The position numbers and the translations under genes were made by a program. A stretch of DNA of 35,007 nucleotides from an uncultured bacterium (GTDB taxonomy: Bacteria > Patescibacteriota > Minisyncoccia > Phycocordibacterales > Phycocordibacteraceae): positions 1 through 35,007 of the forward strand of contig CAIJZI010000003.1 in NCBI GenBank assembly GCA_903825105.1, read 5' to 3'. The stretch's first letter is position 1; every line of letters starts with the position of its first letter. The notes under the pieces were generated by a model. The model was not told the origin of the DNA. It saw only the letters and a list, made by a program, of their open reading frames with translations, and searched no databases. Positions 24,819 through 35,007 of this stretch are shown one piece after another.

Positions 24819-24827
24819 TTATCCACA
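24819..24827 (+). promoter_or_regulatory. Perfect DnaA box TTATCCACA
   Basis: Exact consensus in an AT-rich intergenic region upstream of the Lys-rich peptide ORF. Confidence 0.5.
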
Positions 24828-27651: not shown

Positions 27652-28017
27652 ATGAAGACGGAGAAAACAAAACAATACGATCTGGAAGAAAGAACAATGA
27701 GATTTGCCAGCGAAGTGCGCACATTCGTACGACTGTTGCCGAAATCAATCGCGAATCGTGAAGATACGAGTCAGGTAGTGAGGTCTTCAGGTTCAGTAGG
27801 AGCAAATTATATCGAGGCAAACGAATCGTTAAGCAAAAAGGATTTTGTGATGCGTATAAAAATCTCCCGCAAAGAAGCGAAAGAAACTGCTTTTTGGTTA
27901 AAACTCATTGACACTGGCGGCAACGCCTTACTCGAAGAAAAGCGAAATGCGCTACACCAAGAAGCTCGGGAATTAATGTTCATATTGAGTTCAATTATGA
28001 GAAAATTTGAATCCTAA
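27652..28017 (+). CDS. Four-helix-bundle protein (23S rRNA IVS-protein / TIGR02436-type family)
   Basis: DLEERT..F...V, QVVRSSGSVGANYIEA, SKKDF..RIKISRKEAKETAFWL; 121 aa. Confidence 0.92.
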   Translation: MKTEKTKQYDLEERTMRFASEVRTFVRLLPKSIANREDTSQVVRSSGSVGANYIEANESLSKKDFVMRIKISRKEAKETAFWLKLIDTGGNALLEEKRNALHQEARELMFILSSIMRKFES

Positions 28018-29075: not shown

Positions 29076-30518
29076 ATGGAGTATCTCCCGACCATCGGTC
29101 TCGAAATCCACGCTGAACTTAAAACGCGAACGAAGATGTTCTGCTCCTGTGCGAATGATCCAGATGAGTCGCGTCCCAATGTAAACATCTGTCCGATCTG
29201 TTTGGCGCATCCGGGTACGCTCCCGACGATTAACAAAGAGGCGGTTAAACAAGTACTTCGCGTTGGCGTAGCAGTAAATGGAACGAGTGCAGACGCGAGT
29301 GAATTTGATCGGAAGAGTTATTTTTATCCCGATATTCCAAAAGGGTATCAAATCAGTCAGTATGCGCGGCCACTTATTTCTGGAGGATCTCTCGCTGGCG
29401 TTTTGCTCACGCGCATCCACCTCGAAGAAGATACGGCGCGCTCGATACATCTCGAGGGCTCAAGCGCAGTTGATTTTAATCGTGCGGGGGTGCCGCTTAT
29501 GGAGCTCGTGACTGAGCCAGTAATACACGACGCAGAGACGGCAGGGAATTTTGCACGCGAGCTACAACTTCTACTACGAACCCTTAATGCGGGAGAAGCA
29601 AATCTTGAAAAAGGAGAAATGCGAATCGAAGCAAATATCAGTGTTGCAAAGCACGAAGCATCAAATACGAAATCCGAAATGGATACAAAATTGGGCACAA
29701 AAGTAGAAGTCAAAAATTTAAATTCATTTCGCTCGGTTGAACGCGCAATTGATTTTGAAATAAAAAGACAGATCGCTCTTATCGAGAGTGGTGGAGAAGT
29801 GCGCCAAGAAACGCGTGGGTGGAATGAGTCGAAGCAAGAGACCTTTCATCAGCGTTTTAAAGAAGACAGCGCAGACTATCGTTATTTCCCCGAGCCTGAT
29901 TTACCCAAGCTCGCGCTTTCTGAAATTGACACATTTTCTGTCGAAGCACTCAAAGCATCATTGCCCGAGCTCCCGTGGAATCGCCGTGCACGATATGTCG
30001 ATACTTACGGCATAAAAGAAAGTGACCTCGCTTATTTGTGTGCGACAAAAGAGCGCAGTGATTTTTTTGATAGTGTCGCATCAGAACTAGAAAATAAAAA
30101 TGAACTTGTAGCGCTCGCGGTAAATTATATTGTTTCGGATCTCGCGGGCATCGTAGCCAAAAGCGGTAATGATACGGTATCTAAATTAACGCCAAATACT
30201 TTTGCAAAGATGATTCGGCTCATTCAAGATGGAGTGATTTCTTCACGCGGTGCAAAAGATCTTCTGTATATACTCGTTGAGTCAGGCGGCGAACCAGAGA
30301 CAGTCGCGGCAGAGAACGGGCTTATACAGATCCACGATGATGCGGTGCTCGGAGAGGCAGTGGATGCAGTAATCGCGGCAGAGCAGAAAGCCGTACTTGA
30401 GTATAAAGCAGGGAAGCAGGCAGCTCTACAGTATCTCGTTGGTAAGGCTATGAAGGAGAGCCGCGGCGCAGGGAACCCCACAGAGTTGCAAAGGCTTCTC
30501 GTAGAAAAACTGGGTTAG
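29076..30518 (+). CDS. gatB: Asp-tRNA(Asn)/Glu-tRNA(Gln) amidotransferase subunit B
   Basis: IGLEIHAEL, FDRKSYFYPD.PKGYQISQY, RIHLEED, DFNRAGVPLMELVTEP, VEVKNLNSF and DYRYFPEPDLP, with a YqeY-like C-terminus. Confidence 0.97.
   Translation: MEYLPTIGLEIHAELKTRTKMFCSCANDPDESRPNVNICPICLAHPGTLPTINKEAVKQVLRVGVAVNGTSADASEFDRKSYFYPDIPKGYQISQYARPLISGGSLAGVLLTRIHLEEDTARSIHLEGSSAVDFNRAGVPLMELVTEPVIHDAETAGNFARELQLLLRTLNAGEANLEKGEMRIEANISVAKHEASNTKSEMDTKLGTKVEVKNLNSFRSVERAIDFEIKRQIALIESGGEVRQETRGWNESKQETFHQRFKEDSADYRYFPEPDLPKLALSEIDTFSVEALKASLPELPWNRRARYVDTYGIKESDLAYLCATKERSDFFDSVASELENKNELVALAVNYIVSDLAGIVAKSGNDTVSKLTPNTFAKMIRLIQDGVISSRGAKDLLYILVESGGEPETVAAENGLIQIHDDAVLGEAVDAVIAAEQKAVLEYKAGKQAALQYLVGKAMKESRGAGNPTELQRLLVEKLG
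29649..29680 (+). repeat. Heptamer-repeat tract in frame inside gatB
   Basis: AAGCACG-AAGCATC-AAATACG-AAATCCG-AAAT encodes KHEASNTKSEM, with the same units as the cassette arms. Confidence 0.75.
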
Positions 30519-30573
30519 CTATAAAAGTGCATAAGCTGTTCCATTCCAGACGAGATATGTATATACTGCCTGT

Positions 30574-31320
30574 ATGGATGAGATTTTTATAGAAGAAAAA
30601 AAATATATATCGTCAAAACAAGCGGCAAAGGTTACGGGGTACGCCAAGGACTATATAGGGCAACTTTGTAGAGAAGGGCGTGTGCCGGCAAGGCTCGTGG
30701 GTAGGAATTGGTATGTTCTAGAGACGGCGATTCAGGATCACCGTTTTGGAGATTCTGAAATGGAACAAGGAGATACAGAAAAAGGAGAAGAGGCTATATC
30801 TGAGATACCAGAACCAGTAAATCCTGCTGCGAGCGGCATACAAGAGTCATGGCAAGCATGGTTTGACCGTGTTGATACGGCAGTAGAAAAGCCAACTGAA
30901 TCAGTCGAGTCTGAGAAGATGGAGATCGAAGTTGTTGAAGATAGCCCAATAGAGCAAGAGACTATAGCTGAAGAAGAGAGTGAGCCGGAGAAGCCTGTTG
31001 TAGACAGTATTGAAGCAACGGTTGTGCCGATACGCACAATAACTGCAGAGCCTAAGGCGTACTCGATTCCGGAGGACTTGTTGCCGAGGAACAATACAGA
31101 GTCTCCGCTTGTCGTTGGACGTGCCCGTACAGTGCGAAAAATAGGGAAGAGGCACGCACTTACTTTTCTCCGCGCTATAGAGATAACGGGCGCAGTTTTT
31201 GCCACGATCTCTTTAGTTGTAGCGGCTCTCGGCACAGGATACTTCGATCATTATGTGCTCTCGAATAGTCAAGCAAGTGTTTTGTCGGGAGTATCACTCT
31301 ATAATAAAGCGCTTAAATAA
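30574..31320 (+). CDS. Excisionase/MerR-type (HTH_17-like) HTH protein with acidic linker and C-terminal TM helix
   Basis: YISSKQAAKVTGYAKDYIGQLCREGRVPARLVGRNWYV; E-rich disordered middle; hydrophobic ITGAVFATISLVVAALGTG near the C-terminus. Confidence 0.8.
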   Translation: MDEIFIEEKKYISSKQAAKVTGYAKDYIGQLCREGRVPARLVGRNWYVLETAIQDHRFGDSEMEQGDTEKGEEAISEIPEPVNPAASGIQESWQAWFDRVDTAVEKPTESVESEKMEIEVVEDSPIEQETIAEEESEPEKPVVDSIEATVVPIRTITAEPKAYSIPEDLLPRNNTESPLVVGRARTVRKIGKRHALTFLRAIEITGAVFATISLVVAALGTGYFDHYVLSNSQASVLSGVSLYNKALK

Positions 31321-31953
31321 AAGATTTCTCGTCTCGGATACACGAGATTACTCTTAATGATAAGGCAGAACATTTATTGAGGCATATATTTTGCACGATC
31401 AGTAAAATAAAAGGGTAGGCAATATAAATGTGCATATTTTTATATGGTTATTTAGTAGCGAAGATAATAAAATCGCGTACAAGGCTCAAAATTGCGATAT
31501 AAGGCTTTTATTTCTATTTGTAGGTATATGGGCCACTCTATAATTCTAATTAGAAATTAAAACAATGTCGCACAATGTATCAAATATTTTACGACGCACA
31601 CTGCAGCTAAGACCAGAGTAGTAATTCTAAATAATATATGAATTATTCGCTTCGCATATGCGACATATCTAATGAATACGGCGTATATTTATAAAACTAT
31701 TTTTATAATAACGGTAATTTGTATAGGTTGTTACGCGCGGCTAATTATTTATAGTCAACTTAAAGGCACCAGAAACTAATTTTTACAGATTAATTTTAAG
31801 AAAGAGTCCTACAGGTATTGTTTTTAAGTATGATGGATCAAGATTAGGCTCTTTTCGTTGCCAGTGAGGCATTTAAAGGCTCTTTGCGGCCATCTAGAGG
31901 TTTAATTTTGATGATCTTAAGCAATAAATTTTTAATATATTTTATCGGTATCC

Positions 31954-32018
31954 TGTGTAAATTTAATTTTTAATTTTTAAAAATTTTTACACATCAAAAT
32001 AAGTGACACTTATCCACA
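31954..32018. promoter_or_regulatory. Cluster of DnaA-box-like sites in an AT-rich intergenic region
   Basis: TTATCCACA (32010-32018, perfect), TTTTACACA (31985-31993, fits TTWTNCACA) and inverted TGTGTAAAT (31954-31962, one mismatch). Confidence 0.45.
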
Positions 32019-32078
32019 GACAATCGCTATGTGCTACCGAAATAGCAAGTTATTATTTAGTTAATCCGGATATCCGAC

Positions 32079-35007
32079 ATGGATGAAATCTTTGAAAAAA
32101 ATTTAATATCGACAAAAAATGCTGGAGAACTTTCTGGCTACTCCTCGGACTATCTCGCGCGTCTCGCGCGATCAGGAAAAATTAATGGAAAAAGAATTGG
32201 GCATAGCTGGTTTATAGAAAAAGACTCACTCTTGAAATTTTTAGATGAGCAGGGGAATCGTAAGATTGATTATTCTCGCGCGCTCGCGCGCGCGCGAGAA
32301 GCAGAATACCGAGAGCAGAATTCGATTTTAAGAAATACTGCAAAAACTTTGTCAAAGCCGGTAAAAGTGCCCGTCAAAGAAATTCTAAACAACTCAGTGC
32401 GCCACTTCGCGAGCTCACCGATTTTTGCTGGAGTTGTCGCTCTTCTTGTTATCGTAGGTGGCGCGGCTCTTACTCATGCAGCCTCATCACCCGCGTTAGC
32501 AGATCGCGCGCTCTCGATAGTGACTGAAGTCTCGACAGGATTTAATTCAACATTTGGGAATATCCCAACGAAGATTGCAGAAAATATTCAAAAGACTTAT
32601 GAAGGCGCCGCGTCAATTTCTTATTCGTTGCGAAATGCGAGCACTCTTGCATTTCAGAATTATGACAGCGGCATCAGACTTTCTGCTGTTACCAACTCCT
32701 CACTCTTCAATTCTCCACGCATCGCTTTTTATGAAAATAAAAACGCTGACCGTATCAGTGAGATAAAATCACTCGCGCAGCCATCAGGTAAAATAAAAGA
32801 ATCCGTGCATACTATCGTTACGCTCGCTGATATCGAAGCGTTTGTCCTATCTGCATACACATTCTTCGAAAATCCTTCAAGCATACCTTCGGCGATCGCG
32901 AGTGTGTACGGTGCGCTCGGGAATAATTCATACACCGCGGTTGTTGCATCGCTCGATGCCTATCGCTCGCTTATCGAACAGGCAGGAATAAAAACGCTCG
33001 CTCTCTCATCGAGCGCGCGCGATGCTCTCGCCGCCTCGCCGCGCCTTATTTCAAAAATGAATCTCGCGTTAGGGAATGCAATTATCGACGGGACGCACTT
33101 CGCCATACACGCGGATGTTCAGAGCGCGTATGTCGTCTCTGACACAGCTCCTCGAGCCGGGCACGCGGTACTCGCTGTCATTATGAACACGGGGAGCACG
33201 CTCGCTGGCGCGACTTCTCGTACGCCAGCTCTCGCGGCATCGCTCTATCTGAACACAACCGCGATCCCTGCGACGCTCGCGCCGAAACTGGCTCAAGCGG
33301 TCTTCGGTGTTGAATATTCTGGTGCATCACGCTTTATCGCGGCGACCAATACCATTTCTGACAAATACCTGATCGCTATTCAAGGACTCGGCGAAGCGGG
33401 ATATGGTGGCGCCACCAATGCACGCTCTGCGGCACTCGCCCTTAGTAGCTTCAGAAAAGTTGCACCGGCGGCAATTGAAGATGCATATCTCGGCGTTATC
33501 GGTAAAAGCGCCCTCGCTCTGAATACCGCGAGTGAAAAGTTGACCGACTCGATACTCACGATACCGAAAGTCTCTGAAGCACTCGCCGCGGTCGCGCCGA
33601 CGCTCTCGACGGGTGAGCAGGTGGCGCTCACTACCTATAAAACAATCAACAGTATTTTTGGCGCGACAACGAATGCGCTCGCTTTCTTGTTTGAAAAAGA
33701 ACCAACAATCGTGATGCCAACGATCCCGATCACTCACACGCTCGCCGTTGCGACAACAACTCCAACAAGACCGACAACTTCTCTACAACCTATAACCTCA
33801 TTCCCAACCTACACAACAGTCGTGAGCGGCATTTCCCAAAACGAAATGAACCAGTCACTCGCCTCGCTTCGCAATAATATTCTCGCGACAGTCAGCGGAA
33901 TGATCCAGCCGGTCGCGGCGCAGAGCGCGGTAAATCAGACAACGATCCAGCAGGTGAATATGATTCAGAATCTTTCTGATCTCACCGTGCACAACGGAAA
34001 CTTCATCGGCGGAAACTTAGACGGAGTAAGCATCACGAACGGCACCTCGATCTCTGCATCACAAGGCGCATTCGATAATCTTATCGCTGGCGCGTTTTCT
34101 GTCGGGACATCAACCGTCACGAATTTAATCGCGACAACTGGTTCTATCGCTTCGCTCATCACCACAAGTGCGACAACGACCAACAGCACAGTCACCGGCT
34201 CACTCGCGCTCGCCTATTCGACGCCGTCTCGCCTCCTTTCAGTAAATGTAAACGGTGTGGCGACTTCAACAAATCTCTCCCAATGGATCTCTGGCACAGA
34301 AAATCAGATTACATTCACAGACAATGGCATTGGTGGGCTCACCGCCTCGCTCCCCTCACTGGTCACGCTCACGACAGCATCAACAACAAATCTTTTTGCA
34401 ACAAACGCAACAATCGGCGCGCTCTCGGCAAATTCGCTTTCGCTCGCGAATCAACTCACGGTCGCGAATGGCGGCACGGGCGCCACTTCGTTTATTGCCG
34501 GACAACTTCTCTATGGCTCGGGAACGGGAACTGTGCAGAGCGTCGCGACTTCAACTGCGACACTTGGCCTCGGGCTCACCGGCTCACTCACCGGAATTGG
34601 TTTAAACAATTCGCTCTCTATCGCAACCTCAACACTCTATTCAGGCACCACCGGTCAATTCCCTTATTTCTCCGCGACAAATACGCTCACCGCGACCTCT
34701 TCGCTTTTCCTCGCGTCAAGTGGCAATGTCGGAATCGGGACGAGCTCGCCGATGTCGCTGCTCTCTATTCAAGCAACTGCAGGCGGCACTACTCCACTCT
34801 TCGCGATCGCTTCTTCAACCGCAGGCGCCGCGACTTCAACCGCCTTCTTCGTCGCGAATAATGGGAATGTCGGCATTGGAACGACGACGCCTTCACAACT
34901 GCTAAGCGTTGGAAACGCAAATCAATTTACCGTCACATCCGCCGGTGCAGTCACTGCAGTTGGTGTGAACGCTGGTTCGGGTCTCATTCAAGGCACTGGC
35001 GGGCTCA
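32079..35007 (+). CDS. Giant HTH-TM-surface-fibre protein, 3' end outside the window (>=976 aa)
   Basis: I translated it by hand with no stop from ATG 32079 to the window end. N-terminal HTH (MDEIFEKNLISTKNAGELSGYSSDYLARLARSGKINGKRIGHSWFI), TM at ~aa 115-131, then an A/S/T/G-rich region with LTVANGGTG and two GNVGIGT(S/T)(S/T)P motifs (34722, 34863). Confidence 0.88.
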   Translation, partial: MDEIFEKNLISTKNAGELSGYSSDYLARLARSGKINGKRIGHSWFIEKDSLLKFLDEQGNRKIDYSRALARAREAEYREQNSILRNTAKTLSKPVKVPVKEILNNSVRHFASSPIFAGVVALLVIVGGAALTHAASSPALADRALSIVTEVSTGFNSTFGNIPTKIAENIQKTYEGAASISYSLRNASTLAFQNYDSGIRLSAVTNSSLFNSPRIAFYENKNADRISEIKSLAQPSGKIKESVHTIVTLADIEAFVLSAYTFFENPSSIPSAIASVYGALGNNSYTAVVASLDAYRSLIEQAGIKTLALSSSARDALAASPRLISKMNLALGNAIIDGTHFAIHADVQSAYVVSDTAPRAGHAVLAVIMNTGSTLAGATSRTPALAASLYLNTTAIPATLAPKLAQAVFGVEYSGASRFIAATNTISDKYLIAIQGLGEAGYGGATNARSAALALSSFRKVAPAAIEDAYLGVIGKSALALNTASEKLTDSILTIPKVSEALAAVAPTLSTGEQVALTTYKTINSIFGATTNALAFLFEKEPTIVMPTIPITHTLAVATTTPTRPTTSLQPITSFPTYTTVVSGISQNEMNQSLASLRNNILATVSGMIQPVAAQSAVNQTTIQQVNMIQNLSDLTVHNGNFIGGNLDGVSITNGTSISASQGAFDNLIAGAFSVGTSTVTNLIATTGSIASLITTSATTTNSTVTGSLALAYSTPSRLLSVNVNGVATSTNLSQWISGTENQITFTDNGIGGLTASLPSLVTLTTASTTNLFATNATIGALSANSLSLANQLTVANGGTGATSFIAGQLLYGSGTGTVQSVATSTATLGLGLTGSLTGIGLNNSLSIATSTLYSGTTGQFPYFSATNTLTATSSLFLASSGNVGIGTSSPMSLLSIQATAGGTTPLFAIASSTAGAATSTAFFVANNGNVGIGTTTPSQLLSVGNANQFTVTSAGAVTAVGVNAGSGLIQGTGGL

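Follow-up and report, generated by a model that had tools for sequence, protein, structure and literature searches.

A conserved excisionase-type head joined through one hydrophobic helix to a giant fibre in Patescibacteria

Why should a giant fibre exported from the cell begin with a domain of the kind that binds DNA? The question is raised by a gene at the end of a 35,007-nucleotide (nt) stretch of DNA from an uncultured bacterium of the Patescibacteriota (Minisyncoccia; Phycocordibacterales; Phycocordibacteraceae; assembly GCA_903825105.1, contig CAIJZI010000003.1). This stretch, referred to below as the window, is the entire contig C3 of a genome of 600,757 bp in 9 contigs that is 96% complete. 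At 32079..35006 on its forward strand lies the 5' part of a giant fibre gene, encoding a winged helix-turn-helix (HTH) head of the excisionase/MerR type, a long basic helix, a hydrophobic helix, an Ala-rich base and the beginning of the fibre. The best overall explanation, to which about an even chance is given, is that of a giant fibre with a working head at the inner face of the membrane, most likely a DNA-binding one, whose candidate site is the leader of its own gene. Each element named in the original prediction, which had been made from the letters of the window, was found at the place given for it.

The frame starts with ATG and runs through 976 codons without a stop to the end of the window. 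It appears in open reading frame (ORF) listings when open ends are allowed, whereas default lists omit it because open-ended frames are left out; the original prediction had already noticed a frame of at least 976 amino acids (aa) that was missing from the ORF track. Comparison of all contig ends showed that the reverse strand of contig C7 opens with the genome's only long 5'-open frame, 1,068 aa in length. This frame carries a Peptidase_S74 domain at aa 627-688 (50.3 bits, cut-off 22), a Bact_surface_Ig-like domain at aa 967-1037 (78.7 bits) and three G.VGIGT..P...L motifs in addition to those encoded in the window, and over its C-terminal 330 residues it closely resembles full-length homologues such as P0005. 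If the two ends abut, with 1 leftover base on C3 and 2 on C7, the reading frame is kept. Further downstream on C7 follow an IS200-like ORF, the gene for GAPDH, rpiB, a pilin-like gene, rpe and two transketolase halves, and in the homologous locus L003 the same order follows the giant gene, minus the IS200-like ORF and the pilin-like gene. On the upstream side the window, L002 and L003 agree in the order secA-obgE-gatB-small gene-giant gene. The matching synteny, the only S74 domain, the only long 5'-open frame and the kept reading frame support reading C3 and C7 as parts of one predicted gene of at least 2,045 codons, of which the window ORF would be the first 48%. In this way the rest of the frame, which the original prediction had lacked, could be retrieved and placed by synteny. 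No long DNA repeats that could explain the contig break were found.

The winged HTH head occupies aa 10-58 (32106..32252, forward strand). HTH_17 (PF12728) is the only Pfam match in aa 1-976, scoring 22.3 bits by hmmscan and 27.6 bits in a six-frame search of the genome against a cut-off of 27 bits, and a precomputed PF12728 annotation is present on 11 of 34 homologues. An AlphaFold2 (AF2) model built from a 30-sequence alignment reached a predicted local distance difference test (pLDDT) score of 96-98 over aa 11-80. It comprises a strand at residues 9-11, helices at 12-19 and 23-32, strands at 37-40 and 43-47, and then a helix at 48-92, and thus has the strand-helix-turn-helix-beta-hairpin wing fold. 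The best Foldseek matches of the head in the PDB were TraN of pIP501, Pukovnik Xis, Tn916 Xis, GlnR-DNA, RacA-DNA, RdfS and BldC-DNA, all of which we take to be DNA binders. TraN and Pukovnik Xis matched with a Foldseek probability of 1.00 and a root-mean-square deviation (rmsd) of 1.6-2.3 A, BldC with a probability of 0.95-0.96 and an rmsd of 1.6-1.8 A, and Tn916 Xis and RacA-DNA with a probability of about 0.95. Most superpositions extended over ~50 residues with an rmsd of 1.6-2.6 A, those of GlnR-DNA (4r4e) and Tn916 Xis having 3.6-3.7 A, and target-normalised Foldseek TM-scores were up to 0.76. The E-values were weak, because the query also held the long helix and the membrane segment. 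A search of the PDB with the sequence of the head returned only chance matches to ribosomal protein eL15. The AF2 and Foldseek results agree with the excisionase-type HTH that had been proposed for the N-terminus, here of the excisionase/MerR winged type, and the basic linker proposed along with it, YSRALARAREAEY, was located at aa 65-77.

Residues T12, K13, R28, R31, G33, K34, G41 and W44 of the head are at least 90% conserved. Its pattern G..s..y..l.r.G.....G..W fits HTH_17, with GY..DY(L/I)..L.R.G as the signature of the subfamily. The long basic helix containing RKIDYSRALARAREAEYR extends over aa 48-92 (32220..32354, forward strand), with an AF2 pLDDT falling from 96 to 86, and within it R67, L69, A70, R73, E76 and Y77 are each at least 90% conserved. 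Comparison of 13 full-length homologues by region gave median identities of 70% for the HTH head, 63% for the neck, 60% for the Ig-like domain and 59% for the module following S74; the values were 44% for the basic helix, 37% for the hydrophobic helix, 36% for the base domain, 28-33% for the fibre and 25% for S74. The head, at the top of all regions, is therefore the most conserved part of the protein. In some members (P0040, P0078, P0085 and P0101; locus L020) two tandem HTH heads precede the membrane helix, with the motif at residue ~79 in addition to that at ~20. The net charge calculated from the sequence is about +7 over aa 61-108, the inner flank of the hydrophobic helix, and about -1 on the outer flank, and by this difference the predicted cytoplasmic position of the head is strongly supported.

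The hydrophobic helix at aa 113-135 (32415..32483, forward strand), defined by hydropathy and by alignment columns over 117 homologues, has a Kyte-Doolittle maximum of 2.3, and no second helix is of like strength. With its basic inner flank, it corresponds to the one transmembrane (TM) helix of the original prediction, and it could serve either as a signal-anchor or as a cleavable signal. The family consensus at aa 132-134 is A-x-A, which reads THA in this protein and is followed by A-S-S-P. Alanine occupies position -3 (132) in 98 of 114 homologues, A/T/S occupies -1 (134) in 105 of 113 and G/S/A occupies -6 (128) in all 113, with a polar residue at -2 and Pro at +4. Small residues at -3 and -1 behind a hydrophobic core, with a helix breaker near -6, are what a signal peptidase recognises, and genes for a single LepB and two M50 site-2 proteases are present. 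Ordinary Sec signals lie at the extreme N-terminus, with a short n-region and no position-specific conservation of the h-region, whereas here the core starts at residue ~113, after a folded domain, and one face of the helix is conserved. This face consists of the small residues S113, A117, A121, V124/125, G128 and A132; the column counts are 94% for A117, 85% for A121, 85% for V124, 68% for G128, 86% for A132 and 93% for A/T/S134. Judged from the sequence, cleavage of the helix by signal peptidase is plausible, at somewhat less than an even chance. Since the A-x-A motif is conserved and LepB is encoded, the fibre may be severed from the head after export.

The helix is followed by an Ala-rich stalk or base domain (aa 136-560; 32484..33758, forward strand), which is conserved as one unit and present also in fibre-less members of ~455-467 aa. 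An AF2 model of the base (aa 136-660, 18-sequence alignment) was mostly helical and unreliable, with a mean pLDDT of 36.9, and was excluded from the fold search. The start of the fibre is marked by a conserved neck motif, YPTYTTVV..NQSLASLR..ILATVSGMIQPVAAQ..TIQQVNMIQNLSDL, at aa 575-650 (33801..34028, forward strand; median identity 63%). The first part of the fibre itself (34029..35006, forward strand; median identity 33%) is Thr/Ser/Gly-rich and variable, with ANGGTG at aa 796 and capping-loop-like GNVGIGT..P..LL motifs, of which the GNVGIGT..P portions stand at aa 882 and 929. The original prediction had described this succession of an Ala-rich stretch and a Thr/Ser/Gly-rich, beta-type part with both motifs. 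Loop motifs related to GNVGIGT..P..LL have been described in S74 fibres (PMC10769870). The fibre varies in length and sequence, has a PHROG tail-fibre match (phrog_9942) and a weak sequence match to the Bdellovibrio fibre Bd2133 (8ond, E 4e-4). The putative trimeric beta-helical shaft is suggested by the similarity of the motifs and by the PHROG match. No PHROGs family was found for the window-encoded part, and no NCBIfam family for either part of the giant protein.

The tail-fibre-like outer part had been suspected to end in an S74 chaperone, and this domain was indeed found on the C7 part, where it is the genome's only copy (56 bits in the genome search). The catalytic SDERNK at residue 627 of the C7 part has the S-D-x-x-x-K form, as have the corresponding motifs of homologues (SDQRLK, SDARLK, SDISLK, SDRRIK and SDERLK), and the domain matches the ICA domain of MYRF (7dc3, E 1.4e-3). 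S74 is not the C-terminal end, however, since 441 residues follow the catalytic Ser, including a coiled-coil/beta module with 59% identity and the Ig-like domain. Some homologues without S74, e.g. P0020 and P0022, keep this post-S74 module. Among P0013, P0010, P0026, P0020 and P0022, some carry Hint/intein-type domains after S74 or inside the protein (PF14890, PF01079; also at the C-terminus of P0013), and others have PF26696 PTL_trimer in place of S74.

The first 600 aa were compared with other proteins. A word-index search returned 34 matching proteins of 1,180-3,046 aa with 31-52% identity, most at 100% coverage, from Kaiserbacteria, Minisyncoccia/Paceibacterota and other Patescibacteria, and several of them carry PF12728, PF13884 and PF16403 in one protein. 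An exhaustive search recovered proteins of up to 4,883 aa in 2,124 representative clusters at E<=1e-3, of which 587 remained at E<=1e-10. Of the 150 best matches, nearly all have the motif G[YF]..DY[LI]..L.R.G at residue ~20 and the hydrophobic helix at ~105-125. Within the genus, 19 genomes out of 25 contain a giant-type match, the longest open frame measuring 5,991 aa; other families of the order gave head-only matches, except for one reaching query residue 199. Members of ~455-467 aa lack the fibre and consist of head, helix and a portion of the base domain. Database members of 113-250 aa were considered as natural head-only proteins and rejected, as they look like fragments or frameshifted pieces. 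Recurring in the 34 word-index matches and in 587 clusters at E<=1e-10, the layout is far beyond chance. The survey of the architecture proposed in the original prediction thus found it in Kaiserbacteria/Paceibacteria-type genomes, with more than 100 homologues that measure 1,200-6,000 aa. In public records the members are named only 'hypothetical', 'helix-turn-helix domain-containing', 'tail fiber domain-containing' or 'immunoglobulin-like domain-containing', and a full-text literature search found no description of this family.

A second head is encoded next door. The small paralogue upstream of the giant gene (30574..31320, forward strand) is a protein of 248 aa with an HTH_17-type head (23.1 bits), a long acidic linker, a C-terminal TM helix and an outer tail of ~27 aa. 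It has 1,614 homologues at E<=1e-5, and in 12 other loci, too, it comes before the giant gene; the small and giant genes have adjoining NCBI locus tags in NTU85_01400/01405 and KGQ72_01900/01905. The small gene has its own promoter region (window 30500-30573), with a TGTGCACA palindrome near -48 and TATACT at -13..-8, kept in about 12 loci. The position of TATACT suggests that the mRNA of the small gene may be leaderless or nearly so.

Between the two genes lies an AT-rich spacer of 758 bp with 31% guanine plus cytosine (GC) (31321..32078), which starts with a conserved hairpin-like TTCTCGTCTCG block and has an unconserved middle. Across loci the spacer is 430-760 bp long and AT-rich, with three conserved parts, namely the hairpin-like block, a TTATCCACA box and the leader of the giant gene. 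No terminator-pattern match was found in the spacer, and its repeats are low-complexity AT words only. The TTATCCACA box at -69 (32010..32018, forward strand) is present in 10 of 11 aligned upstream regions, and in relatives it stands at -68/-69 or -78/-79, one helical turn apart. The same 9-mer, a perfect DnaA box, has 19 copies in the 600-kb genome (C1-C9) against roughly 4-5 expected, two of them in the window (24819-24827 and 32010-32018). Most copies are located 20-40 nt upstream of -35/-10-like sites, e.g. before a pilin gene on C8 and before a TTGACA-N17-TATAAT promoter on C1, and by this distribution TTATCCACA looks like a general upstream promoter element and not an origin cluster. 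The spacer was also considered as oriC, on account of the perfect DnaA box and a turn of GC skew near 32 kb, and this was rejected: the spacer has a single box, boxes in the window number 7 against 7.07 expected, and the 9-mer is promoter-associated genome-wide.

The third conserved part is a nearly invariant leader of ~45 nt, CGAAAT..AAGTTATTATTTAGTTAAT.CGG.TATCCGAC, which abuts the ATG (32034..32078, forward strand) and holds two AGTTA words 11 bp apart. It is conserved in 11 of 13 loci although the proteins are only 40-50% identical, and it occurs once in the genome. Throughout the genus, the giant gene goes together with this leader and with the tail-anchored paralogue. Folding of the leader alignment gave a consensus energy of -2.6 kcal/mol and no RNA covariation, and neither spacer nor leader has an Rfam match at E<=1; an RNA element in spacer or leader was rejected on these grounds. 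Being conserved and unique while showing no covariation, the leader appears to be constrained in its sequence itself and not in an RNA fold.

According to the preferred explanation, the fibre would be exported by Sec, would trimerise from the S74 chaperone and would be cut at the S74 serine, as in known S74 fibres (PMC10769870). The head would do its work on the inner face of the membrane, whether it stays attached to the fibre or persists as a stub once signal peptidase has cut at A-x-A; it is regarded as a working module there because no other part of the protein is as well conserved and because the tail-anchored paralogue carries a second copy of it. The pattern of conservation, the fold class and the invariant leader together suggest that the head most likely binds DNA at this face, and the best candidate site would be the nearly invariant promoter/leader of its own gene. 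Binding there would couple the expression of this gene to the making or export of its product.

Several observations weigh against this explanation. The HTH_17 score is borderline (22.3 bits by hmmscan), and the join of C3 and C7 rests on synteny, not reads. The small-residue face of the hydrophobic helix would be more typical of a TM helix that stays in the membrane and oligomerises than of a signal peptide that is discarded. The leader may be just a strong promoter/translation-start region read by other factors, and its TTATCCACA box is found genome-wide. Membrane HTH domains can bind proteins instead of DNA, as RodZ binds MreB, and two MreB genes, though no canonical RodZ, are encoded here. 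Finally, a trimeric fibre would present three heads, which is a misfit with a palindromic operator. Xis/BldC-type domains bind direct repeats as head-to-tail arrays, a mode that suits a trimer better than a palindrome would. A more far-reaching version, rather unlikely, is an undescribed form of envelope-to-DNA coupling in which the heads of both the fibre and the paralogue would lie side by side at the inner face of the membrane and bind the leader, and each export event would leave an HTH remnant in the membrane after cleavage at A-x-A. One of the two site-2 proteases could free this remnant, so that the cell would count export and feed back on transcription. The nearest known precedent is the retroviral Rem protein, with its long nucleic-acid-binding signal peptide.

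The role of the head could also be sought in protein binding. RodZ has an HTH, a basic juxtamembrane segment, one TM helix and an outer domain, as found here, and its head binds MreB, not DNA. By analogy, the head of the giant protein would bind a cytoplasmic protein (MreB, a division protein or the paralogue) and position or immobilise the fibre at a defined site of the envelope. The two MreB genes would fit this role, as would the second, tail-anchored head next door, which is even more conserved, and no HTH_25/RodZ above the cut-off is present in the genome: HTH_25 has no match on the giant protein, and its best match genome-wide is an 83-aa ORF with 21.6 bits, below the cut-off. RodZ, however, has an XRE-type HTH_25 head and no fibre, whereas all classifiable Foldseek neighbours of the present head at probability >=0.9 are Xis/MerR-class DNA binders and not of the XRE class. 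Conserved basic residues occupy the recognition-helix and wing positions, and the locus is not near the mreB genes, which makes a RodZ-like adaptor unlikely, although it deserves attention. A different proposal keeps DNA binding and makes the uncleaved protein a contact sensor, in which binding at the fibre tip would be passed through the TM helix to alter DNA binding by the head and hence expression. The topology is that of ToxR, TcpP and CadC (CadC: PMC5430869), with a cytoplasmic N-terminal winged HTH, a single TM helix and an extracytoplasmic domain; moreover, the conserved face of the TM helix suggests specific helix packing, and the promoter of the gene itself holds a conserved candidate operator. 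Those regulators, in contrast, combine an OmpR/PhoB-type HTH (Trans_reg_C) with a small sensor, whereas the only Pfam match of the window-encoded part of the giant protein is HTH_17, the fold neighbours are of the Xis/MerR type, and the protein carries a giant fibre and a possible signal-peptidase site. No sensor domain was found in the outer part, a fibre with an S74 domain. The ectodomain of 2,000-6,000 aa is flexible and hugely variable in length, which would make it a poor transmitter of a conformational signal. In addition, S74 cutting would detach the conserved C-terminal module, the conserved A-x-A may split sensor from effector, and short family members lack any fibre. A ToxR-like sensor is therefore judged decidedly unlikely, and contact sensing, a chromosome-to-pole tether and a DNA conduit, all put forward in the original prediction, are conjecture.

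The head might have no role after export. A role proposed for the extended signal peptides of giant adhesins is to hold back the N-terminus while the chain is exported, and head and basic helix could likewise form an oversized Sec n-region that retains or slows the N-terminus of a very long chain and becomes dispensable after cleavage. The conserved signal-peptidase-type motif with Gly at -6, the presence of LepB and the extended signal peptides of giant adhesins elsewhere (ESPR, YSIRK) speak for such an export aid. But a winged HTH that is 70% conserved, more than any other part of the protein, would be superfluous for mere retention; an export aid would also leave the stand-alone paralogue with its own promoter unexplained, and short fibre-less forms keep the head. 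This proposal is accordingly considered very unlikely. That an HTH gene was joined to a fibre gene through misassembly or loss of a stop codon, as an ORF cut by the contig end might suggest, can be dismissed as vanishingly improbable. The same single-frame layout is found in more than 100 independent assemblies (NCBI, JGI, ENA, Logan), and contigs of 100-990 kb carry it as a complete frame. Since the layout is conserved in full across assemblies made independently, the misassembled chimera that the original prediction had named as a possible refutation is excluded.

The preferred explanation, of a fibre with a working inner-face head, may be compared with known systems. The original prediction knew of no characterised system with this architecture, which is too strong as a statement: ToxR/CadC and RodZ share the HTH-TM-ectodomain order, MYRF combines a DNA-binding domain, S74 and TM helix in another order, and Bdellovibrio has S74-capped fibres (PMC10769870). 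The mosaic adhesive trimer (MAT) fibres of Bdellovibrio bacteriovorus, e.g. Bd3182 and Bd2133, are characterised cellular fibres with an S74 cap (PMC10769870). Like the proteins studied here, they are tail-fibre-type surface fibres of cellular and not phage origin, in a bacterium that lives on other bacteria. Both have a conserved cell-proximal N-terminal domain directly after the export signal, followed by a variable fibre with V-G-x-x-..P...L capping-loop motifs. Many MAT members end in an autoproteolytic S74 with SDxxxK and others replace it, and in the present family P0020 and P0022 likewise lack S74. However, MAT proteins start with an ordinary signal peptide and a beta-rich domain of ~130 aa, whereas here a cytoplasmic HTH head of ~110 aa and a 420-aa Ala-rich base are found, about 440 conserved residues follow the S74 serine, and the proteins are 2-6 times longer.

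The phage S74 tail fibres and tailspikes (K1F endosialidase, T5 pb1) share the intramolecular S74 chaperone with its Ser-Lys dyad, and the tail-fibre match phrog_9942 is a further likeness. Unlike these, the giant gene lies on the chromosome among housekeeping genes (secA-obgE-gatB ... gap-rpiB-rpe-tkt) and no phage genes accompany it, its product has a membrane segment and an HTH, and S74 is not at the extreme C-terminus. To our knowledge, MYRF (PDB 7dc3) is the only characterised protein that combines a DNA-binding domain, S74/ICA and a TM helix. The giant protein resembles it in bringing together a putative DNA-binding head, S74 and a predicted TM helix. In MYRF the order is DNA-binding domain-ICA-TM and self-cleavage frees a DNA-binding trimer, whereas the order here is HTH-TM-fibre-S74, and cleavage by S74 would be unable to free the head, because the cut is outside the cell, beyond the TM helix and the fibre. 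With small HTH proteins of the Xis/MerR type (Pukovnik and Tn916 Xis, RdfS, BldC, TraN and the RacA N-domain) the head shares its fold over ~50 residues; those proteins are soluble, whereas the head is joined to a basic helix and a membrane segment.

While S74 trimeric fibres and membrane-tethered HTH proteins were known, the combination of a conserved excisionase-type head, an export helix and a giant fibre in Patescibacteria appears from these sequences to be new. A large part of bacterial diversity belongs to the Patescibacteria. They live attached to other cells, and both their attachment and their gene regulation are mostly obscure. The giant gene takes up about 1% of the 600-kb genome, and its conserved neighbourhood is the same in the relatives examined. 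No other S74 fibre is encoded in the genome, and the product of this gene is therefore a leading candidate for the host-contact organelle. The conserved cytoplasmic fold of a DNA-binding type, duplicated next door, points to a link of fibre production with the chromosome or the cytoskeleton, in cells that have very few regulators. The pieces in which the system could be tested are small, namely the 108-aa head, the 45-nt leader and an S74 fragment.

Some minor features of the locus may be added. The IS200-like Y1 transposase ORF (PF01797, 32.8 bits; L035 9329-10000, on the minus strand of contig C7 of genome G000) comes directly behind the stop codon of the giant gene and ahead of the GAPDH gene, a position at which it is absent in L003. 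Between secA and obgE, a 121-aa ORF (27652-28017) belongs to the 23S_rRNA_IVP family (PF05635, 52.8 bits) and is absent at the same position in L002 and L003. GC skew goes negative exactly at the giant gene (window 32000-35007), which is probably an effect of the codon composition of the Thr/Ser/Ala-rich fibre and not a replication signal.

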